IMG/VR virus record: IMGVR_UViG_2541047882_000006
Strand: one strand, 5' to 3'
Source of the DNA: a virus
Lineage: Duplodnaviria > Heunggongvirae > Uroviricota > Caudoviricetes
Length of the DNA: 33,679 nt
Below are positions 1 to 17,849 of the stretch, in pieces. The notes beneath the pieces were generated by a model. That model saw only the letters and a program-made list of their open reading frames with translations, had not been told where the DNA came from and searched no databases. Both the position numbers and the translations under genes were made by a program. Position 1 is the first letter of the stretch. Each line of letters starts with the position of its first letter.

Positions 1-136
1 CACAACATCCGAGGACAGCATCGTCCGCTGGCCCACAGAAGTCCGGAAAGTCATGGAAGGTCGTTGTTGGGAGGAGGTACAAATTCTCTCATGCAAAAAA
101 TACGTAAAATCGATAATAGCTGGAAATAATTCAATA

Positions 137-198
137 CATGCACTCTCGAAAGTGCATCAGCCAACCGCAGAACGTTATTGCATACAACGTTTCTGCGG
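137..198 (-). terminator. two hairpins just downstream of tfaR (minus-strand sense); possible intrinsic terminator
   Basis: Inverted repeats atgcact/agtgcat (137-156) and ccgcagaacgtt/aacgtttctgcgg (165-198); on the minus strand the second hairpin is followed by a T-rich tract. No strong U-run, so weak. Confidence 0.3.
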
Positions 199-212
199 CA
201 TAATCCCAATGA

Positions 213-797
213 TTACTCCCTGACAGGATTTGCAGGCCACTCAATATCAGGTGCAGTTGATGTATCAACACGGTTCAGCAACACCCGATACTTTTTCCAG
301 GCTTCCAGCAACAAGGTTTCTTTCTCCGTTGCGATCTCCAGATCTGCAGCATCCTGAAGCGGCGCAATATGCTCACTGGCTACCTGCATCAGGTTGTTTT
401 TTGTTTCTTCCGCCTCCCGGATCCGGAACAGTTTTTCTGCTTCCGTATCCTTCACCCAGGCTGTGCCGTTCCACTTCTGAAACTCCCCTTCCGGCGATAA
501 CCAGGTAACATTTTCCGGTAACGGACCGAGTTCAGAAATAAATAACGCGTCGCCGGAAGCCACGTCATAGACGGTTTTTCCCCGATGATCTTCAACGAGA
601 TGCCACGATGCCTCATCACTGTTGAAAACAGCCACGAAGCCTGCCGGAATATCTGGCGGTGCAATATCGGTACTGTTTGCTGGCAGACCTGTATGAGGCG
701 GAATATATGCGTCACCTTCACCAATAAATTCATTAGTTCCGGCCAGCAGATTATAAATTGTTATGGTCCGTGCTTGTTCACTCATTCTGAATGCCAT
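213..797 (-). CDS. tfaR: tail fiber assembly protein (Tfa family)
   Basis: 194-aa track ORF; sequence recognised as Rac/lambdoid Tfa. Its ATG overlaps the stop of the upstream stf fragment at base 797. Confidence 0.85.
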
Positions 798-2600
798 TAT
801 GCAAGCCTCACAATATAGTTAAATGCGATGTTTTTGACGGTGTTTTCCGCGTTACCAGCAGCGTTAACGGTGATGGTGTGTCCATGTGAGCCAATCGCAA
901 CAGAGTGCGTATGAGCACCAATACCGACAGTATGCGCGTGTGCACCTGCAGATGCTGCTGTGCCGGACAGTGAGTGGCTATGATTACCATCTGTACTGGT
1001 ATTAGCTAACGCCCCCGTAGACATACCTACTGAGCCTTGTACACCCCAGGTATTTTGACCTGAGCTTGTATAACCATATTGATAAGTATCTTTAAAAACA
1101 CTGGGGTTAAATCGACGGCCATCTCTATGGCTGTGATTACCAGCTGCATTCGTGCTGCCACTTAAACTATGGGTATGCGCACCAGTGTTATTCGTGGATT
1201 TAGTGCCGTAATCAAACGACGATGTGGTTTTCGTCCCCAAATCCGTACTGGATGCGCTGGCGCTGTGGGTGTGCGATTTAATGCCGTCCTGTTCCTGAGA
1301 CAATACGGCACGACCACTGGCAGGTTTACCCTTAATCGTCCAGCCACGCATATCAGGGATCACGCCTGACGGATAAGCAGCTGCAAGTTTCGGGTAAGCA
1401 GATTTGTCAAAAGTCTGCCCCTGCATCACGGCATAACCAGACGGAACGGTATCTGATGGCCACGGGATTGGTGCGCCGACTGGGTAGCTTTCTGGTGGAA
1501 GATTTTTCGAGGTATAAACTTCTGCCCAGTCTTCCTCAAAACCATAACCGTCTCTTGAAGAACGGTAGAACAGACCTCTATTTCTGTAATGTGCCTTCAT
1601 CTGCAGGGTGCGGCAACTTCCGACTCCGGTATAGAAGTTAACCAGAATATAGCTGTCGCCAGAGCGGGTGACATTGTAAGCGCCTGATTCGGCATTCCAG
1701 GGAACGCCACCATCAGCATCCGCATATGACCCTGTTGCCCTTCTTGCGAAAGCGGCAACATGCGCAGCGGTTAAAGTGATATCAGTAGAACCATCAAATG
1801 GAACACCGGATATTTTTCTTGCAGTCTGAAGTTTTGTAGCAGTTGCAGCATTACCAGTGGTGTTCTGGTTACCCGTAGTGTTTACACCTGGAAGGTTAAT
1901 ATTTGCAGAACCGTCGAAAACAACTCCACCGATAGATCTTGCCGTCTGCAATTTCGTGGCTGTACTTGCATTACCATTCAATGAACCAGTTAATCCACCT
2001 GTAACAGACAACGGACCTGAAACTGTTCCTCCGGTTGTTGGCAGCGCTCCAATATCTGATGGTGTAGGTTTCTGATGTGAGCTATACATCGTATAAACAA
2101 CACCACCGGTAACGCTGGAAGGCTTACTCGCTGAATATGTTGGCGAGGTATAAATAGAAACTGACGCATTTGTAGTACAATCCCAATGGATATTTACACT
2201 CGTCGCATAATTGCCAATCTCAACGTAAATATCATATGTATCGCCGGATGTGTTGATCCAGGCGAAATTCGTTAATCCGACGGCTGTACGCTTCCACAAA
2301 GCTCCGGTAATCCCTTTGGGGTTTCCATTGCCTGCTCGTAGAACCAGTTCTGAAATGCCTGCCTGCTGTGGGGAGCCGACGTTGTAACCAGCGCCACCAA
2401 TCAATGCGATGTAAACGATGGAACTCGCTTGTGGCATGGTAACCGTTGCCAGTTTGAACCACCCTGCCCCGCCAGAGAAAGAGATCGTTACTGAATTTAA
2501 AGTGCCAATATCTTTCGGTGTTAATGTTATATCCGCAGTCAGTGCTTTCCCGTTAACTTTTCGGTTAGATGGTACCCTGCCATTCGCATTGTCATTCGCT
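797..2600 (-). pseudogene. stfR: side tail fiber protein, C-terminal portion only (5'-truncated)
   Basis: Longest start-initiated ORF is 797-2437 (546 aa) with tail-fiber-type repeats ([40 protein letters not shown]). The frame stays open about 55 codons further upstream with no ATG/GTG/TTG and runs into the J remnant in the +1 frame. K-12 StfR is about twice this length as I recall it. Confidence 0.75.
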
Positions 2601-2603
2601 GCT

Positions 2604-2780
2604 TTAACTGCCTTCAGTGTCCAGCACTGGCGTACTGTTCAGCAGCACGCTTTTTAATCCATCCACCGGACCTTCAACCGGCCCTTCGCTGATGGCATCG
2701 ATCACACTCAGCAACTGCGTGGACTTCAGGTTGTCCTTCGCTTCGCGCGGGGTATGCCCCTTACTGCTGCCTTTACCCAT
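2604..2780 (-). pseudogene. remnant of lambda J-type central tail fiber gene (first 58 codons, then stop)
   Basis: Reverse complement from 2780 translates [58 protein letters not shown]-stop, matching the N-terminus of lambda gpJ as I recall it and diverging right after TEG. A full J gene would encode over 1100 aa. Confidence 0.8.
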
Positions 2781-2840
2781 TCGTCATGCTCCATAAACGA
2801 CAAAACCGCCCGGAGGCGGTTTCACATAAAACATTTTGCA

Positions 2841-3488
2841 TCAGCGACCAATCACCACAACCTGACCACCGTCCCCTTCGTCTGCCGTGCTGATCTCCTG
2901 AGAAACCACCCGCGACCCCACACGCATTTCACCGTACAGAACAGGCAAAACATTGCCCTGAGCAACCATGTTATCCAGTGAGGAAAAATAGGTGTTCTGT
3001 TTGCCGTTATCTGTACTGGCTGCCGTGGACGTCCTGGCTTTCGGTGCCAGCATCTGCGCCACTCCGCCCAGGACCATACTGGCCCCTGCCGCATACATGC
3101 CCGATACAGCCGCGGCACCCAGCCAGCCCACAGGGTTCCACCATGCCACCGCAATCAGCGCCGCCCCAAGCACCACCTGAAACACACCGCCACTTTTAGC
3201 TCCCACCAGACGCGGCACGATGTGGATCACGGCACCATTTGCCAGCGGCTCATTAAGACGGGCAGACAATTCGGTTTCACCGGCATCACGCCCGGCAATG
3301 CGTACCTGATACCAGCCGTCGCTCAGTTTCTGACGAAACGCCGGGATCTGTATGGCCAGCGCCCGGATGGCTTCGGACCCCGTTTTCACTCGAAGGTCGA
3401 TGCGGCGGCCAAATCGTTGTAAATCCCCGTAAAGGCAGATGCGTGCCATGCCCGGTGACGCCAGAGGGAGTGTGTGCGTCGCTGCCAT
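2841..3488 (-). CDS. tail tip assembly protein I (lambda gpI-like)
   Basis: 215-aa track ORF; N-terminus MAATHTLPLASPGMARICLYGDLQRF and C-terminus near-identical to lambda gpI as recalled; sits between K and the J remnant in lambda order. Confidence 0.9.
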   Translation of the reverse strand: MAATHTLPLASPGMARICLYGDLQRFGRRIDLRVKTGSEAIRALAIQIPAFRQKLSDGWYQVRIAGRDAGETELSARLNEPLANGAVIHIVPRLVGAKSGGVFQVVLGAALIAVAWWNPVGWLGAAAVSGMYAAGASMVLGGVAQMLAPKARTSTAASTDNGKQNTYFSSLDNMVAQGNVLPVLYGEMRVGSRVVSQEISTADEGDGGQVVVIGR

Positions 3489-4129
3489 TTGTCGGTATAC
3501 CTCTCTCGTTTGCTCAGTTGTTCAGGAATATGGTGCAACAGCTCGCCGTCGCCGCAGTAAATGGCGGCATGATTCGGCACCGATGAACCAAAACAGCACA
3601 GCAGCACATCGCCCGGCTGGGCCGCTGACAACGGCACCTGATACAGCCCCGTTGCCTCCATATTATCCAGATAGAGATTCTGACCGTTACGCCACCAGTC
3701 ATCCTCGCGATGAAAATCCGGCATCTCAATCCCCGCCAGATGATAAGCATCCCGGAACAGCGTGTAACAGTCCGTCACCCCGTGCTCAAAGCGCCGCCCG
3801 GTGAGATGCGGCACACAGCGGAACTTATGAATTGTCCCCCGGCAGACCAGCCACCACGGCAAATCACTCTGCACCTGCAGCCGCCGGTCGGCCTCACTCA
3901 GCCAGGGCAGACCACCGGGGTGGCTGTGGACCAGCGCCACCACCTCACCCTGCATTTCTGCCTGCAGCCAGTCTTCCGGCGACATACGGAAATACGCCTC
4001 CGGCTCACCGGAGATATTCACGCAGGGGAAATATCTTTCCCCCTCCGGCGTGCTTACCACGAAGCCGCACGACTCCGCTGGCGCACATCGCCGGGCGTGC
4101 GCCAGAATCGCTGATTCTGTCTGTGTCAT
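3386..4129 (-). CDS. tail tip assembly protein K (lambda gpK-like, MPN/JAB plus NlpC/P60-type domains)
   Basis: Track ORF 3386-4171; start placed at the internal Met (MTQTESAILAHARRCAPAESCGFV), which matches the lambda gpK N-terminus. HSHPGG motif present. Overlaps I by about 100 nt, as in lambda. Confidence 0.85.
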   Translation of the reverse strand: MTQTESAILAHARRCAPAESCGFVVSTPEGERYFPCVNISGEPEAYFRMSPEDWLQAEMQGEVVALVHSHPGGLPWLSEADRRLQVQSDLPWWLVCRGTIHKFRCVPHLTGRRFEHGVTDCYTLFRDAYHLAGIEMPDFHREDDWWRNGQNLYLDNMEATGLYQVPLSAAQPGDVLLCCFGSSVPNHAAIYCGDGELLHHIPEQLSKRERYTDKWQRRTHSLWRHRAWHASAFTGIYNDLAAASTFE

Positions 4130-4133
4130 GGGT

Positions 4134-4832
4134 TTACTGCGAAAGTTTGTTAATGGAAAGGAAGCCGCCAAAGTTGCCGACGTTATTGCGGAACTTACAA
4201 CCGCTCAGGCATTTGCTGCATTTATCCTTCGTGATATCGGACGTCGGCTGGTCATATTCATCCGCGACCGCCGGACCGCTATAACCGCACTCATCGCCGC
4301 GATAGGTCCAGGTGCAGGTGTTGGCCAGCATGATACGTCCCGGAAAAACAGCGCCATCCGTTTCAGTCGGCGTGGACAGTACAAAAGAGGCACTGACCGC
4401 GCTCAGTTCGCTGCACTGCTCGATGCGCCAGCGGCTGATCACCTCCTGCTCCGGATCGGCTTCGCTGTTTCCGTTGACGAAGTTCACCGCATCCAGAAAG
4501 CGGGCGTAAACCTTACGCCGGACCACCGTTCCGCCGACCAGACTCTGCAGATCTTCCGCCATCCCGGTGATCATGCCGTGCAGGTTAGAGACCGTCAGTG
4601 TCGGACGGGCAGCACTGCCCTTGCCGTTCATCTCAAATCCACTCCCCTGAATGGGATAGGCCTGATACTGCCGACTCTGCCAGGTGACAGACTCACCTTT
4701 TTCGTTCTGCTCATTACAGAAAAAGTAGCGATCCCCGCCTACCTCGGTCAGGTCGATTTCCCAGAGCACCACGCTGGCCGACTGCTCCGCACGAATGCAT
4801 TCATTCAGCGTTTCCTGTTGTATGTCCTGCAT
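4134..4832 (-). CDS. minor tail protein L (lambda gpL-like)
   Basis: 232-aa track ORF, same length as lambda gpL; conserved Cys-rich C-terminus (CSKCLSGCKFRNN); lambda gene order. Confidence 0.9.
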   Translation of the reverse strand: MQDIQQETLNECIRAEQSASVVLWEIDLTEVGGDRYFFCNEQNEKGESVTWQSRQYQAYPIQGSGFEMNGKGSAARPTLTVSNLHGMITGMAEDLQSLVGGTVVRRKVYARFLDAVNFVNGNSEADPEQEVISRWRIEQCSELSAVSASFVLSTPTETDGAVFPGRIMLANTCTWTYRGDECGYSGPAVADEYDQPTSDITKDKCSKCLSGCKFRNNVGNFGGFLSINKLSQ

Positions 4833-5170
4833 CAGATCACCACTTCGTCAAACTGACACGAAAAATCGGTATAGGTGATATGTTCTGTCGCTGACCACGT
4901 TCGACACACCACTCTGATTTTTCTGTTAATACCCGGCGGGCGCCAAAAAAAAGATTTATAGCCTTCATGCCGGGCTAAAAATTTTTCAAATGAATCACGT
5001 TCATTCGCCTCAACTTTGAAATCACAGGTGAAAACGCGCAGAGAATGATTAAGTCCATTTGGACTTCGTTGCTCATAACCATCGCCAAATCTTACAGTTT
5101 TTATCGATGGTTTATTTTCTGTTTTCATTCCATCCTCTGGTAACCAGTGAAATTCTTCCGTATTAGCCAC
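4832..5170 (-). CDS. minor tail protein M (lambda gpM-like)
   Basis: 112-aa track ORF; [16 protein letters not shown] and [15 protein letters not shown] resemble lambda gpM; lies between H and L. Confidence 0.8.
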
Positions 5171-8100
5171 TTAACATTCCCCCATCACGTCGCATATTTA
5201 ACAGATTGCCCTGCACCCGCTGATCAACCATCCCCATAAGTGCTTTTATTGCCTGAGGGCCAATCTCTCCATTCTGGCCGTCATTTTGAATAGTGATTTG
5301 GTATACAGGGGCATAGGTAATATCTCCGCCTCCATTACCACTTTTACTATTAATAGCTCTGACACCAAGAGAACCATCGGAAGTTCGTGTTAATGGCATA
5401 ATGGCTTCCGGACCAGCCTCACCAAAAACACCAGCCCCTCTTGCAAAAGCAAAAAATTGCGGGGAATCATAAATACCGTTCGAATACGTGTTCAATGACG
5501 GAGACTCATAAACACCGCCCTTTGCATTCGGAATAAATTTACTAATAGCACTCCCGATAGTTCCTAAAATCCCCCCAGAAGAACTGTTACTAATGCTGTC
5601 GAAAATCCCAGTAATTGAAGCCTTTAATGCTATTCGACTAAGATCCGAAATCACGGAAGTAGCGAAAGAACGAAAATTTGCCTTGCCTGTCGTGACAAAA
5701 TCACCCAACGCATCGGTCATTCCATCAAACATCTGAGTCGTGGTTGATTTTATCTGCTCACTGATATCCTTAGTGTCATCCAGCCAGTTATTGAATCCCT
5801 GGGAGGCACCACTAACCCAGTCTCCTGCCTGAATATCGAGCTGCTCGTTTTTCTGTCTGACAATTTCTTTTTCTCGTTCCAGAGCATCATTCAGAGCCTG
5901 CATTTTCTCCTGAAAAACATGATTTGACATCCCACGGGATTTATCTGCATAGTCACGTTCAAGTTGCAGACGCTGATTGTTATATTCACGTTCAATCCGC
6001 AGTAATTCCTGCTGGCGTTGCTGATTTTTATCGCCAACCCCATAACCAGCAATCTGAATATCATACCCCTGTTGACGATTATCAATCGAAGCCTGCAATG
6101 AATCACGCCATGCAGCTATTTCGGCGGATTCCTTGATTAGCCTGTTATTTTTTTCAATCGCAACATTTTTCTCCATCAACGCGGTTATTTCTTCCCGGTG
6201 TAAGAGAAGCGATTTCTGATCCTGGGTTAATTTCGATGACGGTCGTGACTCCAGGTCGGCAATCTGCTGACGCCACTTAACCAGTTCCTGTTCAGAGGAA
6301 CTTAATTTAACGGTTAATTCAGTTTGTGAACTTAGTAACGCATTCTGTTGATTCAGATGATCAATCATTCGTTGGGCAGCATCATCCGAATAACCTTTCG
6401 CCTTTGGTTGCTTTGGATCTTTATAACGCTCATTTATTTGAGCGATAAAATTATTATATTCTTCCTTTGAATACTGACTCTTTAGCTTTTCCAGTTTTGC
6501 AAGTTCACTAGCTCTCTGCTGCTCCCGGGTCTGATATTGTTTTGAAAAGGCATCTGCTCTCTGTCTGAGTTCAATTCCTTCCTGTTGTCGCTTGTTGTAA
6601 TCGTTTATTGATGAATTTAGGACGTCCTGAGCAATTTTTTCTGCTTGAAGTACGCCCAATTGCTGCTTTAATCGTGCCAGCCTTTTATTTTGAGCTCCGC
6701 CATCTCCAATGCCACCTAACCCGAAAACTCCGGGTCGGGTATTTTTTTCTATTTCATCAATTTGACGGAGAACATCTGAGATTTTTTGATCAAGGGAGGC
6801 CTCACGGCCAATATCCAGCATGGAATCCCATGCCCATTTTGCGGAGTCTGCCACAGCTTTCCATGCAGTCTCAAGATAACCAAGATTTTCTTTAATCTGG
6901 TTGGTGCGCTGGATCATTGAGGATGAGTATGCTTCTGTCGCAATGCGGGCGGCCTCCTGCTGGTTCCCTTCATCCTGTAGCGCCTTAATCTGGTTATAAG
7001 TCGCAATTGTCAGAAAATGGTACTGATCATTAAGTTTTGATATGGCACTGACAGGATCCTTTGCAATTTCATTGAAGTCATTAACCAGTTGTTCGGTTGA
7101 TATTCCTGTTACTTCGCTCGTTTTTACTATCGCTGTCGTCACTTGCTCCAGCGAACTGCTCGCTACCTTTCCCGAACGCACAAGCTGGTTTAATACTGCC
7201 GCCGCAGCGCCAGTTGTCGAATCAGCCGCATTCCCGGCACGTTGAGCTATATCGGCCAATTGCCCGCTGGTTGTCCCCAACTGATTTCCGGTAAGAATAA
7301 GAGATTTATTAAATTCGTCCTGCTCCTGAGAGCCTTTATAGTAAGCCAGCCCTAAGACGCCAACGGCTGCTGCGGCCAGGGTAAAAGGATTAATTAATCC
7401 CAGCACATAAGAACCAACACCTTTGATCGCCGGGCCAATCCCACCGAACATATCTTTTAGCTGGCCGCCCTGCTGCATTAACACCATAAAAGGCGACTGA
7501 CCAGTGGACAACCCAACAACAATATCCGTCATTTGTGCAGGCAACATGCGCATAGCAAAAGCCGTTTGTTTTGCCGACATTCCGGTTTTGCTTAATTGAG
7601 ATTGAGTAACCTCAAGCTCACTCCGCATAGCACGAAGTTTTCCAGAAAGTTCCTCATACATTTCAGGAGAGAGCATCCCCTTAGCTTTTGCTTCATTGAG
7701 CTGTTTCTGTTGTTCTACCAGACGATTAAAAGCAGTTCCGACAGGGTCAAGTTGAGCAATCAGACGTTGCAAAGCAGCAACCTGTTCATCATGCGCTTTT
7801 GCTGCTTCTCGCTCTGCCTGAGCCTCTCCGGTAAGCTCTCGCCGTGTTTCCTGTATTTTTCGGCTATAATTCTCAAACTGAGAACCATTTATTTTCCCGG
7901 ATGCAAACGCAGCATTAAGTTCATCCTGCTGTTGTTCAAGATTTCTTAGCGCCGCAACCAGAGGGTCGATCTTGTCCAGCATTCTTTGAAAGGCCTGAGC
8001 CTGCGATTCCTGCTGGGCGGCAGCAAGTTTTCCGGCCTTCTCGGCTTCTCTCTGCGCTTGCGCAACCCCGCTCAATTCCTCTGTGGTTTCATTAAGTTTA

Positions 8101-8396
8101 CGGACAAGAAATTCATATTCTTCTTTATCAATAAGCCCTTTATCGAAAAATTTCTTTAATTCAGAATAGCGTCGACCGACAGTATCAATTGCGGCACCAA
8201 CTGGATCAATAGCTGCTTTTAATTTTGCGAGCGCGTTCTTCTCATCTTCTGTTGCCTTAGTCACTTTCCCTGCGCTATTTGCAGCAGTTTCCCCGGCCTG
8301 CGTCATTTTGACTAATGAGGAGGTCAGATTGTCAGCATTATTTTTTGCTCCAGTGCTATCAATAATTATTGCGAGACGCGAGGTTTGCTCTGCCAT
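5163..8396 (-). CDS. tail tape measure protein (gpH-like)
   Basis: 1077-aa track ORF; long coiled-coil N-terminal half with three ~65-aa tandem repeat units, hydrophobic central segment, C-terminal region resembling lambda gpH ([19 protein letters not shown]). Confidence 0.85.
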
Positions 8397-8420
8397 TTAT
8401 TAAAACTCCAGACAACAAAA

Positions 8421-8438
8421 AGCCCACCGAAGTGGGTT
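8421..8438 (-). terminator. terminator-like hairpin between T and H (minus-strand sense)
   Basis: Minus-strand RNA reads cccac-uucg-guggg followed by cuuuuuguugu: a short GC stem with a UUCG loop and a U-tract, about 25 nt upstream of the H start codon. Confidence 0.3.
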
Positions 8439-8559
8439 TCAGGCGACATAATAGTAGATATAGCGATTACGAGGCCACGCAATGCTTTTCTCCAGGAGCA
8501 TCATCGATTTAATTAAAGACACCATCACATCTCTGTAACAGAGTGTACGTAATTAACAA

Positions 8560-8880
8560 CTACACACACTGCTCCTGAAAATACTGGTCATCCAGTGCAA
8601 AGATCACTGCTTCAAACTCATCGCGCTCAATCAATACCGGATGAGTGGCTAAATATTCATTTATCTCTGTCAGAGATAAAGGCAAAGGCACCCCGGTCAT
8701 TCCAGCATAACGTCGGGCACGGGATATTACCGAATAGGCGTACAACAATTCCTTAAGCACCGGGTCTATTTCTGGTTCCGGTATCGGTGGCAACCTGAGT
8801 TTTTCTCGCTTCCATCTTGCCTTTTCCCCCCTTTCTCCCCCGAACTCCGATAACCACCGCTGGGCGGCTATGGCTTTTTT
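8560..8880 (-). CDS. tail assembly chaperone T segment, expressed as a G-T fusion by -1 programmed frameshift
   Basis: Track ORF 8560-8793 (TTG called as start). The same frame is open upstream through the G stop. A slippery heptamer A_AAA_AAG lies at 8874-8880 (minus strand), two codons before the G stop at 8868-8870. Confidence 0.65.
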   Translation of the reverse strand, partial: KKAIAAQRWLSEFGGERGEKARWKREKLRLPPIPEPEIDPVLKELLYAYSVISRARRYAGMTGVPLPLSLTEINEYLATHPVLIERDEFEAVIFALDDQYFQEQCV

Positions 8881-9317
8881 ATCGTATCCTGCTTCTGCTG
8901 CTCTTTACCCTGGGCGATGCTGGCTGCTTCTGCAAGGATCTGCCAGTACAACTCTGGATTCTGCTTAAGCAGCGCGATCCCTCGTTCTGGCGTATATTCC
9001 AGTGCAACCTCAGCACCATTAACCAGTTCACCAACCCCTTTCCAGTCTTTCAGCAGATAACGAGCAGCATTATCAATGAGTAAATCATCAACAGAATCTA
9101 CCTCGGAAACCTTTGAAATATCAAACTCCTTCGTTCCGACGTGCAAACTGGCATCCATTTTCTCAATGTGACGACGGATTAATGCATTACGGGAGCGATA
9201 CTGATCGTTATCGCTGCTTGCCACCAACAGTTTTAACCCGTCTACAGGTTTTAAGTCCTTCATTGGCGTAAACCAGCGTTCTCCACCGATGATAATTTTC
9301 TGATTAAGAATAAACAT
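8868..9317 (-). CDS. tail assembly chaperone G (lambda gpG-like)
   Basis: 149-aa track ORF directly upstream of the T frame and H in lambda order; ends with the slippery site; GAGG ribosome-binding site 7 nt upstream, inside the IS903 target duplication. Confidence 0.7.
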   Translation of the reverse strand: MFILNQKIIIGGERWFTPMKDLKPVDGLKLLVASSDNDQYRSRNALIRRHIEKMDASLHVGTKEFDISKVSEVDSVDDLLIDNAARYLLKDWKGVGELVNGAEVALEYTPERGIALLKQNPELYWQILAEAASIAQGKEQQKQDTIKKP

Positions 9318-9319
9318 CC

Positions 9320-9328
9320 ATAACCTCA
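9320..9328. repeat. 9-bp target site duplication ATAACCTCA (left copy) flanking IS903
   Basis: Identical 9-mer at 9320-9328 and 10386-10394, immediately outside the 18-bp terminal inverted repeats. Confidence 0.8.
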
Positions 9329-10385
9329 GGCTTTGTTGAATAAATCAGATTTCGGGTAAGTCTCCCCCGTAGCGGGTTGTGTTTTCAGGCAATACGCACG
9401 CTTTCAGGCATACCTGCTTTCGTCATTTTGTTCAGCGCTCGTACCAGGGCCATAGCCTCCGCAACCTGACCATCGTAGTCACGCAGCGTCAGTGAACCCC
9501 CGAACAGCTGTTTTACCCGGTACATCGCCGTTTCCGCTATCGAGCGACGGTTGTAATCTGTTGTCCATTTCCACCGCGCATTACTCCCGGTCATTCGCTG
9601 ATTAGCCACTGCACTGTTACGGTCTGCATATTCACCGGGCCAGTAACCCGCACCTTTTCGGGGAGGGATAAGGGCGCTGATTTTCTTACGCCGCAGTTCA
9701 TCGTGACAGAGCCGGGTGTCGTAAGCGCCGTCTGCCGATGCTGCCCTGATTTTTCTGTGAGTCTGCCGGATAAGACCCGGGAAGGCTTCTGAGTCCGTCA
9801 CATTGTTCAGCGACAGGTCTGCACAGATGATTTCATGTGTTTTACTGTCAACGGCGAGATGCAGCTTACGCCAGATACGGCGGCGTTCCTGGCCATGCTT
9901 TTTGACTTTCCACTCGCCTTCACCGAAGACCTTCAGCCCGGTGGAATCAATTACCAGGTGTGCGATTTCACCCCGGGTGGGCGTTTTGAAACTGACATTA
10001 ACCGACTTTGCGCGCTTGCTGACACTGGTGTAATCCGGGCAGCGCAACGGAACATTCATCAGTGTAAAAATGGAATCAATAAAACCCTGTGCAGCCCGCA
10101 GGGTCAACCTGAACACGCGTTTAATGACCAGAACGGTGGTGATGGCGAGATCAGAATAGCGCTGAGGTCTTCCCCGTGATGAAGGCGTTGTCGACTCATA
10201 CCAGGCCTGAATGGCTTCATCATCCAGCCAGAAAGTTATGGAGCCACGGTTGATGAGGGCTTTATTGTAGGTGGGCCAGTTGGTGATTTTGAACTTTTGC
10301 TTTGCCACGGAACGGTCTGCGTTGTCGGGAAGATGCGTGATCTGATCCTTCAACTCAGCAAAAGTTCGATTTATTCAACAAAGCC
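9329..10385 (-). mobile_element. IS903 (IS5 family) insertion sequence, complete
   Basis: 1057 bp bounded by perfect 18-bp inverted repeats GGCTTTGTTGAATAAATC (9329-9346) and GATTTATTCAACAAAGCC (10368-10385); one transposase ORF; 9-bp direct target duplication; length and repeats match IS903 as I recall it. Confidence 0.85.
9385..10308 (-). CDS. IS903 transposase (DDE, IS5 family)
   Basis: Track ORF 9385-10353 (322 aa from a TTG). Starting at the in-frame GTG (VAKQKFKITNWPTYNK) gives 307 aa; C-terminus MTKAGMPESVRIA recognised as IS903 transposase. Confidence 0.8.
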   Translation of the reverse strand: MAKQKFKITNWPTYNKALINRGSITFWLDDEAIQAWYESTTPSSRGRPQRYSDLAITTVLVIKRVFRLTLRAAQGFIDSIFTLMNVPLRCPDYTSVSKRAKSVNVSFKTPTRGEIAHLVIDSTGLKVFGEGEWKVKKHGQERRRIWRKLHLAVDSKTHEIICADLSLNNVTDSEAFPGLIRQTHRKIRAASADGAYDTRLCHDELRRKKISALIPPRKGAGYWPGEYADRNSAVANQRMTGSNARWKWTTDYNRRSIAETAMYRVKQLFGGSLTLRDYDGQVAEAMALVRALNKMTKAGMPESVRIA

Positions 10386-10394
10386 ATAACCTCA
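10386..10394. repeat. 9-bp target site duplication ATAACCTCA (right copy) flanking IS903
   Basis: See left copy. Confidence 0.8.
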
Positions 10395-10443
10395 TTCAAT
10401 GCGTCCCCCTGTAGTGCAGTACCACAGGGGGAATAACGGAAAA

Positions 10444-10872
10444 TCAACTAATCGCATCAGCACTGGCTTTTGCGATCACGGCAGTCGGGGAGCATTTTTT
10501 TCTGGTTGTCGGCTTTTTACCCTGAGCAACAAGCATCGCAAACTTAGCCTGCTGGTCAGAAATGCCGAATTCATCGGGACAGAACGAAAATTCCTCCGCG
10601 TCGCCCTCATTCAGGCCCGCATCGAATACTGGCTTTTTTTCCTGAGATTTTTCGTTCCGCTTTTGTGCAGTCTGCGCAGATTTTTTCTGCGCACTTTTTT
10701 GCGCAGTTTTGCACATTTCTGTCTGCGCATTTTTCGGAGTTTTTTTGATGTAACGACGGGCTGTTGCGTAATTCAGTCCCCTTGCTTCACACCATGCCAC
10801 CGGAGATATACCGGAGCGGGTGTATTCAGCAATATACTCCTGCTGCAACGCCCCCCAGTCCGGTCTGCTCAT
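10444..10872 (-). CDS. small-terminase-like DNA-binding protein (resembles Rac YdaY region)
   Basis: 142-aa track ORF; N-terminal helix-turn-helix-like segment (ISPVAWCEARGLNYATARRYIKK) followed by a basic, low-complexity tail. Assignment by sequence impression only. Confidence 0.45.
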   Translation of the reverse strand: MSRPDWGALQQEYIAEYTRSGISPVAWCEARGLNYATARRYIKKTPKNAQTEMCKTAQKSAQKKSAQTAQKRNEKSQEKKPVFDAGLNEGDAEEFSFCPDEFGISDQQAKFAMLVAQGKKPTTRKKCSPTAVIAKASADAIS

Positions 10873-10875
10873 CAG

Positions 10876-11127
10876 TTAGTCCTGATTTTTATCCACCCTG
10901 AGTAGTTCGCGCAGAGCAAAGGCATCCCCTTTTCTGGCAAGCTTAAACAATGCCGCTCGTAACTCGGCTTCACCTTTCGCTCTGCCCTTACGGATGGCCG
11001 CATAAAAATCTGTCATTGCTTCCCGATTTTCTTTCAGTCGGTTCAGATCAACATCCAGAACGTCAGCGATTTGTTGTGCAGTCATCCGGCACGCTGCCAG
11101 AGACTCGACTTTCGAATACGGAATCAT
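10876..11127 (-). CDS. small HTH protein (resembles Rac YnaK / terminase small subunit N-terminal fragment)
   Basis: 83-aa track ORF; TAQQIADVLDVDLNRLKENREAMTDFY resembles terminase small-subunit DNA-binding domains. Confidence 0.45.
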   Translation of the reverse strand: MIPYSKVESLAACRMTAQQIADVLDVDLNRLKENREAMTDFYAAIRKGRAKGEAELRAALFKLARKGDAFALRELLRVDKNQD

Positions 11128-11995
11128 TTGTCACCCCCATTGATATGCAGGGTGTCTTCTTCCTGTATTTTTCGTGAAGGATTTTTACTGCAGCGTTGTT
11201 CCAGGTGACCTGATGGTGAATGCGTTTATGGCTGGCACCCATCAGTGAGATTTTTACGCACGACGGCGCATACATGACGGAGTAAAAACTTTTAACGTAG
11301 GTTCCGGAATCCAGATACAGCTCGGTCATTCCGCCGCTGTTTTTCTGCGTCTGTTTCTGCCCTAACTGGACAGCACCGATCGTCATAAACAATTCACCAC
11401 AGCGACCGAGATTCGTGTACGTATTCACATCCTCGTTAATGCGCCCCATGAATGAGAACGGTCGATCAACCGAACAGATAAAGCTGTTCATTGCCTTGCG
11501 TTTCACCCACGAAGCATGGCCGCCATTGTCACCAAGAAAATCCCCGCCCTGCGACATAGCGATGGAAAGAGCAGGTATTGATTCGTAGTACGCCAGCATT
11601 TCAGAAAGGATCGCATCCAGTTTCCTTATCGGAAAATAGGCCTGGTCATAGTTGCGATCCACCCGAAACTGGAACTCGTGATAATCATCATCGAGCTGAA
11701 TGAAGTATTTACACCCGACCAGTTTTGCCAGGTCGAAACAGGCATTACGGGCGTAAAAAATTGAGCGGCGGTCACAGAAATTATCGGCTTCGTCAAAACG
11801 ACTGGCGATATCGGCTTTGGAAAACACCAGCACCTGTTCACCAAATTCAGCCATGTACTGATGCCGTGTCTTATCTTCATCATCAACAACGATAAAAATT
11901 TTCCCGGTATAGCCAGCACGACGCAACGTCCGGTAAGTCAGAACTTTGTCCGGTCGCCCGTGAGTCAGAATAAAGGCGCAAAAATCATCACGCAT
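11063..11995 (-). CDS. hypothetical 310-aa protein, possibly a nucleotide-sugar transferase-like (GT-A-like) fold
   Basis: Track ORF 11063-12016; start moved to the internal ATG (MRDDFCAF) preceded by GGAGG and overlapping the ParB-like stop (ATGCGTGA), suggesting translational coupling. Two acidic DxD-like motifs (FIVVDDEDK, IQLDDDYHEF). Fold assignment is speculative. Confidence 0.5.
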   Translation of the reverse strand: MRDDFCAFILTHGRPDKVLTYRTLRRAGYTGKIFIVVDDEDKTRHQYMAEFGEQVLVFSKADIASRFDEADNFCDRRSIFYARNACFDLAKLVGCKYFIQLDDDYHEFQFRVDRNYDQAYFPIRKLDAILSEMLAYYESIPALSIAMSQGGDFLGDNGGHASWVKRKAMNSFICSVDRPFSFMGRINEDVNTYTNLGRCGELFMTIGAVQLGQKQTQKNSGGMTELYLDSGTYVKSFYSVMYAPSCVKISLMGASHKRIHHQVTWNNAAVKILHEKYRKKTPCISMGVTNDSVFESRVSGSVPDDCTTNR

Positions 11996-12779
11996 ATTCC
12001 TCCTCCTCACCACCATGCATGATCTCCACCATGCGCTGCGTCATCCGGACAAATCCATTTTCAATAGCCTGCTGATAATCAATGATCACCAGCGCCGACT
12101 CCTCGAAAAAACACTGAATTTCAGCGGGGGCGTGAGCGTAATAGTCCGCAATTCTGCTGAAATTAAACACCGTGTGACGTTCTGCCGCACACAGGAGGAA
12201 TTTCTCAATATCAGGCTCAAGGGACGCCGAACGTATCCGGCTGATCAGCTCCTGAGTTTTCGTATCGTCGTACAGTTCACTGATATCCGGTTTACCGCCC
12301 GACGGCTCATAAACAGGCGTATCAATTTTCGTCGTATACGGCTCCTCCTCATTTCCTGTACCGGGCAAAACATCCGTCAACAGTTCATCAATTTCTGTCG
12401 GGATGAAGCCTGTCAGGGAGACATCAAAATCAGCATTGATTAGGTCCGACAGCTCCATCCGCAACAGATCTTCATCCCAGCCAGCATTCATCGGCAGGCG
12501 ATTATCTGCCAGGCGGTACGCCTGTTTCTGCTCATCCGTCAGGCCAGACAGAACAATGACCGGAACAGAATCCATTTTGAGCATTTCAGCCGCCATAACA
12601 CGACCGTGACCCGCAATAATTTCGCCCTTTTCGTCAATCAGCACCGGATTAGTCCAGCCGAATTGCTTAATACTTTCTACCAGTTGTGCCACCTGCTCAG
12701 TACTGTGCGTCCTGGCGTTGTGCGCATACGGTGACAATTCTTGTAATGGGCGATAGACTATCTTTAATTTCTCGCTCAT
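11988..12779 (-). CDS. ParB-like nuclease domain protein (ParB/sulfiredoxin N-terminal fold) with C-terminal extension of unknown function
   Basis: 263-aa track ORF; ParB N-terminal-domain hallmarks (PLQELSPYAHNARTHS, IIAGHGR, QAYRLADNRL); AAGG ribosome-binding site upstream of the ATG. Confidence 0.7.
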   Translation of the reverse strand: MSEKLKIVYRPLQELSPYAHNARTHSTEQVAQLVESIKQFGWTNPVLIDEKGEIIAGHGRVMAAEMLKMDSVPVIVLSGLTDEQKQAYRLADNRLPMNAGWDEDLLRMELSDLINADFDVSLTGFIPTEIDELLTDVLPGTGNEEEPYTTKIDTPVYEPSGGKPDISELYDDTKTQELISRIRSASLEPDIEKFLLCAAERHTVFNFSRIADYYAHAPAEIQCFFEESALVIIDYQQAIENGFVRMTQRMVEIMHGGEEEEYA

Positions 12780-12916
12780 ACAGCCTTGCTTTATGAATAA
12801 AACGCACCCCAGCAGCCAGTGCTACTGGGGACGGAGGTGTTGCTGGTAAAGTTAGGTATTGGATCAATGAGTGAGTCAACATAATATTAAACTCACAATT
12901 ATAAATCAGCCATATA

Positions 12917-14374
12917 TTAGGAGCGCCAAAAAAAACCTGAAAACAATATAATAACAGGATAAATTTCAAGGCGACCAAGAATCATAGCTATGCACATTAA
13001 ACATTTTGCAATGTCATTAAGCACTCCGAATGACGATGCAGTAGCCCCAAAACCTAATCCCATATTATTAATACATGCAGCCACTGTTGCAAATGATGTA
13101 AGAAAATCATATCCCATACCATTTAACACCAGTATAAAAAACACCGTGAAGAGAGTATAAAGAAAAAAGAAACTCCATACAGACCTCATTACACGATCTG
13201 TAACTATCTTCCCTCCTACATTTACACTCAACAACGCTCTGGGATGAGAAAGCTGATTTATCTCGTGTTTGCTTTGTTTGAAAAGTATAAGAAATCGAAG
13301 TGACTTAATTCCACCACAAGTTGAACCTATACATCCCCCAAAGAAACTTGACAACAGCAAAAACACTATCGTATGCGTGGGCCAACTTGCATAATCCTGC
13401 GTAGCTAAACCATTATCAGTGAGCATGGAGCTGGCAAGAAAAAACGAATGAATAAAACTTCCATGCAAGTCATACATACCTATATGCCAGACCTGGAAAG
13501 AGGTAACAATGATCACCCCTAAGGCTATTAACAGAAAGAAACGAAGTTCAATATCTCTGATTAAAGGTTTTATCGTTTTCCTGCTAATAACAATATACCA
13601 AAGAGTGAAGTTGAAAGCCGATAGCAGGGAAAAAGAACCAGCCACCAGCTCAACCAAATAGTTATTAAAATATCCGATACTCTCGCTATGAGTTGAGAAA
13701 CCACCAAGCGAAACTGTGGAAATCCCGTGACAAATAGCATCAAACAAAGGCATTCCTGCAAGTCTATAACAGACAATACAAGCAATACCTAATAAAGAAT
13801 AAGTTATCCACAGTGTCCGTGACGTATCGGCCAGGCGGGGAGTGAGTTTGTCATCCTTAAATGGCCCCGGCATTTCTGACTGATAAAGCTTTGCACCACC
13901 AATACCCAATAATGGCAATACAGCAACCGCCAGAACAATAACTCCTAAACCACCTATAAAATTTAACTGTGACCGATAGTACAAATATGCCCGAGGTAAT
14001 GAACTAACATCATCAATTACAGTTGCTCCTGTTGTTGTTATTCCAGAAACCCCTTCAAACAGAGCATCAATGAACGTTAAATTAAGTTCTGAGTCAATCC
14101 ATAAAGGGAATGCACTAATAACAGAAAACAAAATCCAAAACATTACAATTATAATAAACCCATCACGGGTACGTAATTGAATGCCAGATTTCTTAGTTGT
14201 ATACCACGCTCCGCCACCAATGCAAAAAAATATAACGAAAGTTATAAAGAAAACGAACAGGCTTTTTTCTTTATAAAACAATGCTACAACCATTGGTGGC
14301 AACATTGAAAGACTATAGAGCCAAACCAGGAACCCACACATATGAGTAACAACTCTTACATGAGATGTATTCAT
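12917..14374 (-). CDS. trkG: Trk-system potassium uptake protein TrkG (prophage-borne TrkH paralog)
   Basis: Track ORF 12917-14392; start placed at MNTSHVRVVTHMCGFLVW to match K-12 TrkG (485 aa as recalled); polytopic membrane protein; AT-rich. Confidence 0.9.
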   Translation of the reverse strand: MNTSHVRVVTHMCGFLVWLYSLSMLPPMVVALFYKEKSLFVFFITFVIFFCIGGGAWYTTKKSGIQLRTRDGFIIIVMFWILFSVISAFPLWIDSELNLTFIDALFEGVSGITTTGATVIDDVSSLPRAYLYYRSQLNFIGGLGVIVLAVAVLPLLGIGGAKLYQSEMPGPFKDDKLTPRLADTSRTLWITYSLLGIACIVCYRLAGMPLFDAICHGISTVSLGGFSTHSESIGYFNNYLVELVAGSFSLLSAFNFTLWYIVISRKTIKPLIRDIELRFFLLIALGVIIVTSFQVWHIGMYDLHGSFIHSFFLASSMLTDNGLATQDYASWPTHTIVFLLLSSFFGGCIGSTCGGIKSLRFLILFKQSKHEINQLSHPRALLSVNVGGKIVTDRVMRSVWSFFFLYTLFTVFFILVLNGMGYDFLTSFATVAACINNMGLGFGATASSFGVLNDIAKCLMCIAMILGRLEIYPVIILFSGFFWRS

Positions 14375-14511
14375 ATCTAAATATTCTTTCAATTATAACC
14401 ACCTTGCTGCAATATTATGATTATACTGTATAAAATTTAACTCCTCTTAGATCTTACTTCACTGTTCCTTATGAAACAATCATCAAAATGAATCATATTG
14501 TAGTTAAGATT

Positions 14512-14976
14512 TTACTTTAAACACTGCTCGGTTATGTATTGCTGAGCACCTTCAAGTTGGGCCTGCATCATTACCAGTCGTTCCCGGAGGGTGAAATAAT
14601 CCCGTTCAGCGGTGTCTGCCAGTCGGGGGGAGGCTGCATTATCCACGCCGGAGGCGGTGGTGGCTTCACGCACTGACTGACAGACTGCTTTGATGTGCAA
14701 CCGACGACGACCAGCGGCAACATCATCACGCAGAGCATCATTTTCAGCTTTCGCATCAGCTAACTCCTTCGTGTATTTTGCATCGAGCGCAGCAATATCA
14801 CGCTGACGCATCTGCATGTCAGTAATTGCCGCGTTCGCCAGCTTCAGTTCTCTGGCATTTTTGTCGCGCTGGGCTTTGTAGGTAATGGCGTTATCACGGT
14901 AATGATTAACAGCCCATGACAGGCAGACGATGATGCAGATAACCAGAGCGGAGATAATCGCGGTTACTCTGTTCAT
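14512..14976 (-). CDS. i-spanin Rz
   Basis: Track ORF 14512-14988; start at [17 protein letters not shown] (N-terminal transmembrane helix) directly after the endolysin stop; coiled-coil periplasmic domain; contains the embedded Rz1 frame. Confidence 0.8.
14571..14756 (-). CDS. o-spanin Rz1 (outer-membrane lipoprotein), embedded in Rz in the +1 frame
   Basis: 61-aa track ORF; lipobox LVVVGC; proline-rich mature region ([16 protein letters not shown]); fully nested in Rz as in lambda and phage 21. Confidence 0.75.
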
Positions 14977-15470
14977 TGCTGACCCCACAAACAGATTTCA
15001 CGCTCAATCTCACGACGAGTCATGAGACCTTTCCATTGCTTACCGCCAGCATATGTCCAGCGACGTAGCTGATCACATGCGCCTTTGATATCGCCCTGGT
15101 TTATTTTGCGAAGAAGCGTCGATGTTCTGAAATTGCCAGCACCCACGTTGTAAACGAATGAGTAAAGAGCGCCGCGCGTTGTTTCCGGTATATCGACTTT
15201 GATGTACGGGTTAATTTGTCTGGCGACAGTGGCAAGGTCTTTATTCAAGAGTGTTTTGCATTCTGCTTTGGTATACGTTTTACCGAGCATGATGTCTTTT
15301 CCTGTATGCCCGTGACATACAGTCCATACACCAACAATATCTTTGTATGGTATGTAGCTGACACCTTCCAGACCATCGTTACCACTTGGGCCAGTGATTA
15401 ACACTGATGCTATAGCAATTGCTCCGCCACCAATAGCAGCAGCAACGACTTTTCGTAATGATGGAGGCAT
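14973..15470 (-). CDS. SAR endolysin (T4-lysozyme-type glycoside hydrolase with N-terminal signal-anchor-release segment, phage 21 R-like)
   Basis: 165-aa track ORF; N-terminal weakly hydrophobic Gly/Ala-rich segment ([18 protein letters not shown]); catalytic E-x8-D-x5-T pattern ([16 protein letters not shown]). Confidence 0.85.
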
Positions 15471-15685
15471 TATTCACCTCTCGCAGCCTTGCGCTTATCT
15501 TCTTTAATCTTGAAATAAAGGTTTGTCAGGTACGTCAGCAGGCCAAATACCAGACTACCCAGCACACCGATTGCAGCCCACTGTGACGGAGTTACTCTAT
15601 CGAGCAACTGTAAAAACCAGTAGCCAGCACTGCCTGCGGAGGTGCCGTAGGCAATGCCTGTTGAAATTTTGTCCATGGATTTCAT
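15470..15685 (-). CDS. holin (phage 21 S-type pinholin)
   Basis: Track ORF 15470-15742; start placed at [14 protein letters not shown] (dual-start motif MKSM); two transmembrane segments; C-terminal [13 protein letters not shown] recognised as S21-like. Confidence 0.8.
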
Positions 15686-15936
15686 AGCCTCACCTCCGCA
15701 CGGAACGGATGGCATAGTTATTATGTGTAGGCTTTCAGACACATCAATCAGAGCCTTAATTGATATATATGCTGGAGACGATGCAATATAAAAAGCTCGC
15801 CGTAGCGAGCTAATAAAATGTATTTCTCTGATATTATGTTTATTTGTATTAGCTCAGACTTGACATCACAGGTTTCGTATATAGAACATCATCAAATCTG
15901 TCAGTTTGCTATGAATGAGATATAGTAATTGAAGAG

Positions 15937-16332
15937 CTAACCTCGCATGTCAAAGCCAGATTTCTGAAAATCTCTGTAGACTTCCGGATTGTTGAAGGCC
16001 GGAAATTTGGCTTTATGAGCTGCGGACTTTATCGCTTCGCAATAGGCTTTATCACCGTTACTGGTAGATATTTTTAACGCCGTGCCATCCTGAGAGAATT
16101 CCATATGCAACCTGCATTTTTTCCCTTTCCAGTTATGCGGCTCATCAAGTTTGGCATTAATTGCAGCTCTGATTCCCCGCGCTTGCGCCCCCCATTCATC
16201 CTGATCATCCCAGCGTCCTGAACTGCAACTACCTGTAGCAGTAGTTTTGTGGCAATCTGAAGGGTGTAAAGGTGTGCATCCCGCAACAAAACCGACCCAA
16301 AAAGTCAACATAACGATTTTCTTTAATCCCAC
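15937..16332 (-). CDS. lipoprotein with TolA domain III-like C-terminal domain (paralog 2, divergent)
   Basis: 131-aa track ORF; signal peptide and lipobox (FVAGC); C-terminal ~80 aa share the two-Cys pattern and the PEVY-x-F motif with the upstream paralog and with TolA domain III. Confidence 0.6.
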   Translation of the reverse strand: MGLKKIVMLTFWVGFVAGCTPLHPSDCHKTTATGSCSSGRWDDQDEWGAQARGIRAAINAKLDEPHNWKGKKCRLHMEFSQDGTALKISTSNGDKAYCEAIKSAAHKAKFPAFNNPEVYRDFQKSGFDMRG

Positions 16333-16482
16333 TTCTTGCTCCTCAATCCATTAAAATCTCAGCAATAGTAGTTGTTACGTCCGCCACTGGCTCAGAGCTG
16401 ACTATCCGCTAAATTTAGCTCAGTGCCGTAGCTGTGTCAGAACAAACCTAAGCCGAAACCGTTTATTACAAAACAATAAATA

Positions 16483-16911
16483 TCAGGGTTTAAAATCCAG
16501 CACCCCATTTTGAAATACTTTATATACTTCCGGCGAAGGGGGGGCAGGTATATCAGCATTCTTTATCGCATTCATCGCTTCACGACATAAATCGAGGTCT
16601 CCACTTTCTCTTTTAACCTCCAGTAGAAGGCCATTCGGGGCCATATGCATTCTCAGTGTACACTCTTTTCCTGAATACTTACTCGCATCCCCGAACTGTT
16701 TTTCGATGGCGCTCTTGATTTGATGGGCATACAGACGGATATCCTCACTAACATCAGAAGTACGTTCAGATGAACTCACATACTGTGTCTCTATTGCTTT
16801 ATCGGAGTAATATGATGTACGGTCATGATAATTTGTCGATACAGCATCAGTGCACCCGATAATAATCCCACTAATAATCAACGTAAGAATTGATGCGCTA
16901 CGAAAACCCAT
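16483..16911 (-). CDS. lipoprotein with TolA domain III-like C-terminal domain (paralog 1)
   Basis: 142-aa track ORF; lipobox IIIGC; C-terminus YAHQIKSAIEKQFGDASKYSGKECTLRMHMAPNGLLLEVKRESGDLDLCREAMNAIKNADIPAPPSPEVYKVFQNGVLDFKP aligns closely with the E. coli TolA C-terminus (...YAGQIKSAIESKFYDASSYAGKTCTLRIKLAPDGMLLDIKPEGGDPALCQAALAAAKLAKIPKPPSQAVYEVFKNAPLDFKP) as I recall it. Confidence 0.7.
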   Translation of the reverse strand: MGFRSASILTLIISGIIIGCTDAVSTNYHDRTSYYSDKAIETQYVSSSERTSDVSEDIRLYAHQIKSAIEKQFGDASKYSGKECTLRMHMAPNGLLLEVKRESGDLDLCREAMNAIKNADIPAPPSPEVYKVFQNGVLDFKP

Positions 16912-17849
16912 TTTTCCTCACATATGTCATATAGTAAAGGATTATATATACCGTTGTTTTGGACGCTCAAACAGCGAATCAGATCAAATAAAACGCACAT
17001 TTGTTAACATTTACACAAAGTCTGCGTGGGATATTCTGAAAGAATATCCATAATGTGGAGAGAATCTATTGAAGTGCATGGTGCCGGGTGCCTCCCGGTG
17101 AACAAAATGTTCGTGATACCTGTCGGCGACAGAAAAGGTTAATGGTATCACCCCACCGCACAGGGGGATTCACCATGCAGGAGTTTTCTTAGCAAACTCA
17201 CTGCGCGCCCGGCAACTCCCAACCACATAAAAATGCGGAGTTTGTGGCATTTATGCATATAACTCGCAGGAATTATCTTAAAAAACTGATGTCGATCCGG
17301 ATTAAAAAGAAGCAGGTCATCATCAGATGACTGGAAAAAAGGAAAACAAAAAATACTCATCATACAGTTTTGATTGCAGGGATGAGCCTGCTATGCACAA
17401 TATGCAGAATATAAGCAAGATAAAAATATGCAGGCATATTATTTCGGATTTTGTTATTAACACAACCTTTTTAATAATCATTTGGCATACAATAAACCAG
17501 CCCAGAAAGAACCGCCTAAACAGGCGGTTGGTCAATACAAAGGATGCTTCGTCTTTATTATAGTAATCTGAGGCGTCGGGTGTCTTGTATCAGACAACAT
17601 ATTGTCCCGCTAAACAGCGAATTACAAACCACCCTGCAATGATCTCTCATCTCATTTTATATGAGTTGACGACATCAGGATAACGCATCATCAGCCCCTG
17701 CCAAGAAATATCAAAACTCCCGCCAGCAATGTGTTATCACAATATTGTAAAAAAAACACAGCACCGAAACTATAACTGGTCTCTGTTATAATTTGGAGCA
17801 GAAAGACCAGTTGCCCAACTAGCAGCATTCTCCCCTGCTTTCCTGACGT

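Follow-up and report, generated by a model that had tools for sequence, protein, structure and literature searches.

An out-of-frame J-stf junction as a probable deletion scar in a Rac-type prophage of Escherichia coli

Organisation of the locus

The window analysed here is the whole stretch of 33,679 nucleotides of the IMG/VR record IMGVR_UViG_2541047882_000006. The late genes of this lambdoid prophage are all on the minus strand, and so are the hairpin and the junction described below. In the direction of that strand, the tape measure gene H (5163-8396) is followed by M (4832-5170), L (4134-4832), K (an ORF ending at 3386) and I (2841-3488). The latter is the intact upstream neighbour of the scar; it encodes the tail assembly protein I of 215 aa (Pfam Lambda_tail_I, E=3.4e-23) and is colinear with annotated Rac-type prophages. 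Beyond it come an intergenic hairpin (2803-2822), a 58-codon ORF that is a remnant of the tail-tip gene J (J', 2604-2780), the junction (2611-2621), the 3' 56% of a side-tail-fibre gene (stf', 797-2615) and tfa (213-797). The tfa gene is intact and encodes a full-length Caudo_TAP protein of 194 aa, the tail fibre assembly protein (PF02413, E=1.6e-43), directly 3' of stf, its ATG overlapping the stf stop codon (TAATG at 795-799, as read from the sequence). In the 99.9%-identical locus of E. coli LSN03-016011/A (hereafter LSN03) the equivalent gene is annotated as tfaR.

The hairpin in the I-J spacer has the form AAACCGCC-TCCG-GGCGGTTT and is followed by TGTCGTTT. It folds with -25.2 kcal/mol (z=-2.3) and, though stably folding, it was not called by a simple terminator scan. 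Its retention had been noted in the original prediction, and indeed both arms of the stem are present, as in lambda and other lambdoid prophages; the same I-J hairpin is found in lambda, LSN03, C2, XD35 and 94-3024. Hence it is a normal conserved feature of the lambda-type spacer which was left untouched by the deletion.

A full-length gpJ is a protein of about 1130-1165 aa that comprises FNIII-A, the Phage-tail_3 hub, Ig domains and, at its C-terminal end, a receptor-binding domain. Residues 1-57 of J' are identical to residues 1-57 of lambda gpJ (PDB 8IYK chain J) at 56 of 57 positions (E=7e-31) and align to positions 1-57 of the 1163 positions of the NCBIfam model lambda_TipJ (E=4e-30), with a bit score of 104 that is far under the NCBIfam cutoff of 1950. 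N-terminal gpJ homology is thus present in a product of 58 codons, in which no Pfam domain was found, compared to the six J-specific domains of an intact reference J. Moreover, tblastn of the 1165-aa J against the whole window matches residues 1-58 only. J' is a gene fragment and a non-functional member of the gpJ family. J is the essential tail-tip hub of lambda, and given its loss here no tail could be completed.

In the case of stf', the product corresponds to residues 485-1091 of the 1091-aa Stf of LSN03, with 605 of 607 aa identical. The 484 absent codons (44%) include the native start codon and the tail-attachment domain PF08400 (phage_tail_N), which covers residues 1-134 of the intact LSN03 Stf (E=2e-71) and is not found in the window fragment. 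The C-terminal shaft and tip (Collar, gp37_C-like, His-rich needle) are kept: the Pfam domains Collar (E=4.7e-12) and gp37_C (E=2.3e-5) are present, 2XGF, the needle domain of T4 gp37, is matched by the tip (E=9e-85), and identity to K-12 StfR amounts to 82% over the C-terminal 359 aa. The fibre frame is open from 2638 and contains no ATG, GTG or TTG until the ATG at 2437, which is residue 546 of intact Stf. The sole fibre ORF bounded by a start codon therefore begins at this internal Met (797-2437, 546 aa), and no longer fibre ORF was found in any frame of the window. Likewise, when full-length J, Lom and Stf as well as the IS200 transposase were used as tblastn queries against the whole window, J 1-58 and Stf 485-1091 were the only matches. 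The stf'-tfa remnant is without disabling mutations, showing 2 aa differences from the intact allele, which is compatible with a very recent deletion and also with retention.

Taken against these data, the original prediction of a fusion between the first 58 codons of J and a 5'-truncated stf gene holds as far as the fusion is concerned, but the J-derived codons are 1-57, and codon 58 (Ser) and the TAA stop (2604-2606) come from out-of-frame stf sequence at the junction. Similarly, the startless fibre frame reaching down to the ATG at 2437 is real, but stf sequence begins at 2613-2615 and not at about 2610. A 58-codon ORF that was not J-derived, or a full-length fibre ORF in another frame, would have spoken against the fusion; neither was found.

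Position and homology of the breakpoint

The breakpoint was placed by alignment of the window with five J references and the stf reference. Microhomology at the junction, which the original prediction had proposed to look for, was found in the form of an 11-bp imperfect homology at 2611-2621, where the minus strand of the window reads GACACTGAAGG, J reads GACACTGAGGG and stf reads GACACCGAAGG (wider junction on the minus strand of the window, CTGGACACTGAAGGCAGTTAAAGC). At this site the J alleles of lambda, XD35, C2, SCU-104 and LSN03 (n=5) read GACA(C/G)TGAGGGGAAT and the stf allele reads GACACCGAAGGCAGTT. J-specific sequence ends with the T at 2616, and stf-specific sequence starts from the A at 2613. 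Of the 11 positions, 9 are shared by the two parents, whose exact overlap is the dinucleotide GA at 2614-2615. On the stf side, the breakpoint is located inside the conserved fibre motif LAATPKAVKAA.

The BLAST blocks of the two flanks overlap at 2611-2621, and an exact microhomology of 11 bp or 5 bp, as could be read from the block ends at 2611 and 2621, was considered. Base-by-base comparison with the five J alleles reduced it to 2 bp. GAGGGG stands at the site in every one of the five J references; a parental J allele with GAAGG would raise the exact microhomology from 2 to 5 bp. The degree of similarity expected by chance was estimated by simulating random J x stf endpoint pairs on the LSN03 sequence. 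Exact homology of at least 2 bp is found at 16% (0.16) of random endpoint pairs, while an 11-bp window with at most 2 mismatches across the junction is found for 0.13% (0.0013) of them. The rarity of such a 9/11-bp similarity favours short-homology illegitimate recombination or replication slippage, and a microhomology-mediated mechanism is suggested by these alignments, with replication slippage, single-strand annealing or alternative end joining as candidate pathways.

A deletion mediated by an insertion sequence was also considered, given that IS200C sits between lom and stf in LSN03, and was rejected: the junction and its surroundings are free of IS sequence, the window yields no match to IS200 tnpA, and neither an IS end nor an att site or long repeat was found at the junction.

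At the join, the J frame reads CTG GAC ACT GAA GGC AGT TAA and the stf frame reads ...ACA CTG AAG GCA GTT AAA. Since the two frames differ, the fusion is out of frame and J' ends after Ser58; hence, translation of J' is not linked to that of stf'.

Deleted segment and state of the prophage

Positions 1-2621 of the window (99.92% identical) and 2611-9328 (96.8% identical) are colinear and in the same orientation with the LSN03 Rac prophage. The locus thus displays the features of a deletion scar, namely colinear flanks with an internal block missing and a short similarity at the breakpoint. Compared to LSN03, 6,235 bp are missing, comprising J codons 58-1165, lom, IS200C and stf codons 1-484; compared to strain C2, which is without IS200, the missing segment is about 5,553 bp. 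The removal of most of J, any lom-like gene and the 5' half of stf, as originally put forward, is borne out by the colinearity with LSN03 and by tblastn, except that 44% of stf and not half of it is gone. A single deletion event, as was also proposed, is the parsimonious reading rather than a provable one, only the final junction being visible.

The right flank of the junction is 98.6% identical to C2 but 96.8% identical to LSN03, and the left flank is 99.9% identical to LSN03. Given that the flanks differ in their identity to LSN03, the ancestor was a mosaic absent from the references, and the deleted length is therefore an estimate.

Colinearity with annotated copies identifies the Rac genes intR, xisR, recET, racR, ydaS/T, iteAS, trkG and ydaY as well as lambda-like tail genes; the prophage is integrated next to ttcA, and sitABCD starts directly beyond tfa. 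Judged by this gene content, the window is a Rac-type lambdoid prophage of E. coli. A literature search on sitABCD combined with a Rac prophage found nothing. Apart from the J-stf scar, the element has lost, compared to the Rac prophage of SCU-104, a 9.3-kb block with the tail tube, head, portal, large terminase and part of the small terminase genes, and it shows two smaller deletions in the early region. An IS903-type element of 1057 bp with a 9-11-bp target duplication is located at 9329-10385. Since the head, portal, terminase and tail-tube genes are lost and the IS903-type element is inserted, the prophage cannot make particles.

The different best relatives of the two flanks (left, LSN03 at 99.9%; right, C2 at 98.6%) could also be taken to mean that J recombined with the stf of another prophage or of an incoming phage, in an inter-element event which also replaced the stf-tfa-sit end. 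Partners would be available, with a median of 5 matching places for the region per E. coli genome, and lambdoid phages are known to swap stf-tfa with Rac and Qin (PMC3945230). However, mosaic identity is usual among lambdoid prophages and can predate the deletion, and an intact Rac-sit prophage would show exactly the arrangement I - J' - stf' - tfa - sitD, in this order and orientation, if an internal block were taken out. Furthermore, had two prophages crossed over at the 9/11-bp site, the chromosome between them would have been deleted or inverted as well. We therefore regard an inter-element origin as improbable and retain an internal deletion.

Expression signals of stf' and tfa

According to the original prediction, the C-terminal half of Stf and Tfa could still be expressed from the internal ATG at 2437, which was held to matter if a Pin-invertible fibre segment is being kept for another purpose. 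Neither part of this proposal is supported. The anti-SD pairing at ATG 2437 is -2.4 kcal/mol, and 67% of the ATG triplets on the same strand of the tail region are as good or better, compared to -5.6 to -9.3 kcal/mol for I, M, H, J and tfa. No sigma-70-like site was found on the minus strand from 2437 to 3600. The J' stop lies 167 nt upstream of the ATG, thus precluding translational coupling to it. Since the tfa start overlaps the stf stop, translation of tfa is probably coupled to that of stf and is likely reduced too. From these predicted signals it would follow that stf' is not expressed; leaky or read-through translation of stf' from a late transcript is possible.

Regarding Pin, the next gene after tfa is sitD, from which only the sitD-tfa intergenic region separates it. 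No serine invertase gene (pin) adjoins tfa, the only recombinase being intR by colinearity with annotated Rac. Within positions 1-3000, only one inverted repeat of at least 14 nt was found, a 23-mer that is 74% complementary, and the window has neither tfa nor the stf 3' end in a second copy of opposite orientation. With sitD next to tfa, no recombinase gene and no flanking inverted repeats, a Pin-type invertible segment was rejected.

It could nevertheless be argued that a truncated Stf of 546 aa is made from ATG 2437 together with Tfa, and that both are kept for a host-beneficial or phage-related purpose. Indeed, the intact ORF at 797-2437 shares 99.7% identity with the functional allele, although a recent deletion explains this high identity equally well. 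The Collar/gp37-like receptor-binding tip is kept and tfa is intact, but such a fibre has lost PF08400 and would find no J, head or tail tube for its attachment. The survival of tfa and the stf 3' end in independent deletions in strains 94-3024 and EC21Z-048 is also in keeping with a retained function. Against this stand the signals described above, namely an internal Met with weak SD pairing, no promoter-like site upstream and no coupling to J', as well as the lack of pin or of an invertible segment. On balance, we consider continued expression of a truncated fibre unlikely. A related idea is that the promoterless stf 3' half and tfa are kept as a donor from which infecting lambdoid phages acquire receptor-binding modules by recombination, or that a Stf fragment and Tfa present at a low level have a host role. 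If true, this would explain why the stf 3' end and tfa survive in several independent deletions, and a role as donor in recombination is, to our knowledge, the only expression-independent role known for such remnants; still, we give this idea little credence as well.

Occurrence of the junction

No match spanning the junction was obtained by megablast in complete E. coli genomes (0/5,426), and the exact 30-nt junction was found neither in GTDB species-representative genomes nor in JGI metagenome contigs. Carriers emerged when the 58-aa J' was looked up as an exact protein match. Five contigs share an identical 461-nt junction segment and display 0-3 mismatches over about 6.9 kb; two belong to the assemblies GCA_000460335.1 and GCA_016685915.1 and three to Logan assemblies of the read sets ERR3328240, SRR11462841 and SRR958583, with at least 9 samples counted. 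Among these, KE701672.1 (GCA_000460335.1) is identical to the window over positions 1-8780 and is probably its source.

The absence from complete genomes and the multi-copy nature of stf and J in E. coli (median of 5 places per genome) are what one would see if contigs had been mis-joined at a short repeat. However, the exact junction is present in two NCBI assemblies and three independent Logan read sets, and assemblers are not led astray by an imperfect match as short as 11 bp, making an assembly artefact hardly conceivable. The recurrence of the same junction in five independent assemblies or read sets therefore marks a lineage-specific deletion. The junction is thus real and rare, a deletion that would be inherited clonally. 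In its exact form it provides a clean lineage marker: a handful of assemblies carry it, as opposed to none of the 5,426 complete E. coli genomes.

Origin and significance of the junction

A J'-Stf' fusion protein produced by programmed +1 ribosomal frameshifting between 2638 and 2604, where the open stf frame overlaps the last 11 codons of J', can be dismissed as next to impossible, since CTGAACAGTACGCCAGTGCTGGACACTGAAGGCAGTTAA shows neither an evident slippery sequence nor a stimulatory structure, the arrangement was made by an accidental deletion, and we know of no autonomous function for J residues 1-57 alone.

In light of these results, we hold it very probable that the junction is the product of a lineage-specific internal short-homology deletion in a Rac-type E. 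coli prophage, and that J' and stf' are dead pseudogene fragments undergoing neutral decay. Short-homology recombination (illegitimate, of the RecA-independent type) or replication slippage would have joined J codon 57 to stf codon 485. About 5.5-6.2 kb would have been removed in this way, comprising J from codon 58 onwards, lom, stf codons 1-484 and IS200 where present. Because of the out-of-frame join, J' terminates after one foreign codon; stf' is left without its own start codon, the tail-attachment domain and any recognisable translation or transcription signal. The scar would then represent one neutral step of prophage decay.

J' (2604-2780) and stf' (797-2615) should hence be annotated as pseudogene fragments and the Rac-type element as cryptic. 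The importance of the finding beyond annotation is small, and it makes no open question newly testable.

Comparison with known prophages

Among the closest counterparts are intact Rac-type prophages with sitABCD, such as those of LSN03-016011/A (NZ_CP035884) and SCU-104 (NZ_CP053284), whose gene order follows that of the window colinearly to either side of the scar. Identity to these copies is 99.9% for the flank with the stf 3' end, tfa and sitD and 96.6-96.8% for the tail genes. Both prophages carry a full J (1165 aa), lom, a full stf (1091 aa) and the head/terminase block, with IS200C in LSN03.

The Rac prophage of K-12, with its ynaA/tmpR-lomR-stfR-tfaR-pinR end, belongs to the same family and has the same neighbourhood (intR/ttcA side; trkG, ydaY, recET, racR). 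It is likewise defective by internal deletions of late genes, but its own scar joins the tape-measure fragment ynaA to lomR. Indeed, K-12 Rac has lost the 3' part of H as well as M, L, K, I and J and has kept lom (with IS5), full-length stfR, tfaR and pinR, whereas the window has kept H-M-L-K-I and has lost J, lom and the 5' 44% of stf, and sitABCD replaces pinR beyond tfa.

Scars of the same kind are found in two other strains. In 94-3024 (NZ_CP009106), 351 nt of J are joined to the last 564 nt of stf, and in EC21Z-048 (NZ_CP101269), a truncated I is joined to the last 108 nt of stf; tfa is retained in both, and both scars are annotated by PGAP as partial pseudogenes. They differ from the window in their breakpoints and in the elements that carry them, and hence represent independent events. 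Moreover, pinR is next to tfa in 94-3024 and EC21Z-048, as in K-12, while the window is without it.

Another natural inactivation of stf that leaves an intact downstream tfa is the frameshift of lambda PaPa (orf-401/orf-314; PMC3945230). There, stf is split into two ORFs in a viable phage that has J, whereas in the window 5.5-6.2 kb including J are deleted and the element is non-viable. The stf-tfa regions of the K-12 prophages Rac and Qin have been shown to act as homologous-recombination donors to infecting lambdoid phages (PMC3945230).

Compared with these systems, the J'-stf' scar is ordinary prophage decay of a kind that is common, and it adds one more example to the deletions by which lambdoid prophages have repeatedly and independently lost parts of their J-lom-stf region.

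Coupling of stf and tfa and deletion scars in other prophages

On the minus strand, the stop codon of stf', the 3' remnant of the side-tail-fibre gene, overlaps the start codon of the intact tail fibre assembly gene tfa in the motif TAATG (window 795-799). This overlap suggests translational coupling of the two genes and therefore, judging from the sequence, the synthesis of Tfa would probably also be lowered by the loss of stf translation.

Other E. coli prophages, those of strains 94-3024, EC21Z-048 and K-12, carry independent deletion scars in this same tail-tip/fibre region. In 94-3024 a 351-nt 5' remnant of the tail-tip gene J is followed by 564 nt of stf' (2067-3055 of its locus, L013), while the EC21Z-048 scar joins I' to 108 nt of stf' (2067-2488 of L014) and the one of K-12 joins ynaA(H') to lomR (4455-6985 of L012). 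All three of these scarred prophages have retained tfa.

Other deletions and an insertion sequence

Compared with an intact Rac-type prophage, a second deletion scar, larger than the J'-stf' one, is found at window ~10507-10511, where 9.3 kb are gone and the junction shows an overlap of ~5 bp. The missing block corresponds to 8246-17562 of the reference locus L003 and comprises the tail tube, the tail terminator, head genes, the portal, the large terminase and part of the small terminase. Relative to the SCU-104 Rac prophage, the early replication region has also lost two smaller segments, at 24099/24100 and ~24717, about 350 bp and 1.3 kb long; one falls between the DUF977/DUF1627 genes, the other in the ydaV/ydaU region.

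In addition, the tail-tube gene is, by comparison with SCU-104 Rac, interrupted in its 3' end by a 1057-bp insertion sequence of IS903 type, a member of the IS5 family (9329-10385), whose transposase ORF occupies 9385-10353 (-). The element ends in terminal inverted repeats GGCTTTGTTGAATAAATC... and is flanked at 9318-9328 and 10384-10394 by a target duplication of 9-11 bp, CCATAACCT(CA).

Gene content and comparison with known Rac prophages

Colinearity with the SCU-104 annotation identifies as cargo of the prophage (19802-23195, -) two anti-phage genes, iteS, encoding an S8 peptidase (ORF 19802-22066, -), and iteA, encoding an ATPase (ORF 22041-23195, -). The intR gene (32444-33679) reaches the window edge. 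The recE ORF (28293-30893, +) is full length, with 866 aa, whereas SCU-104 recE is annotated with an internal stop although the two are otherwise 99.6-99.9% identical.

At its tfa end (window 1-212 and beyond the left edge) the prophage is abutted by the sitABCD iron/manganese transporter operon, the sitD stop lying just before window position 1. A literature search for sitABCD and Rac prophage together found no papers. In contrast to the window's prophage, Rac of K-12 carries pinR-ynaE where sitABCD is found here.
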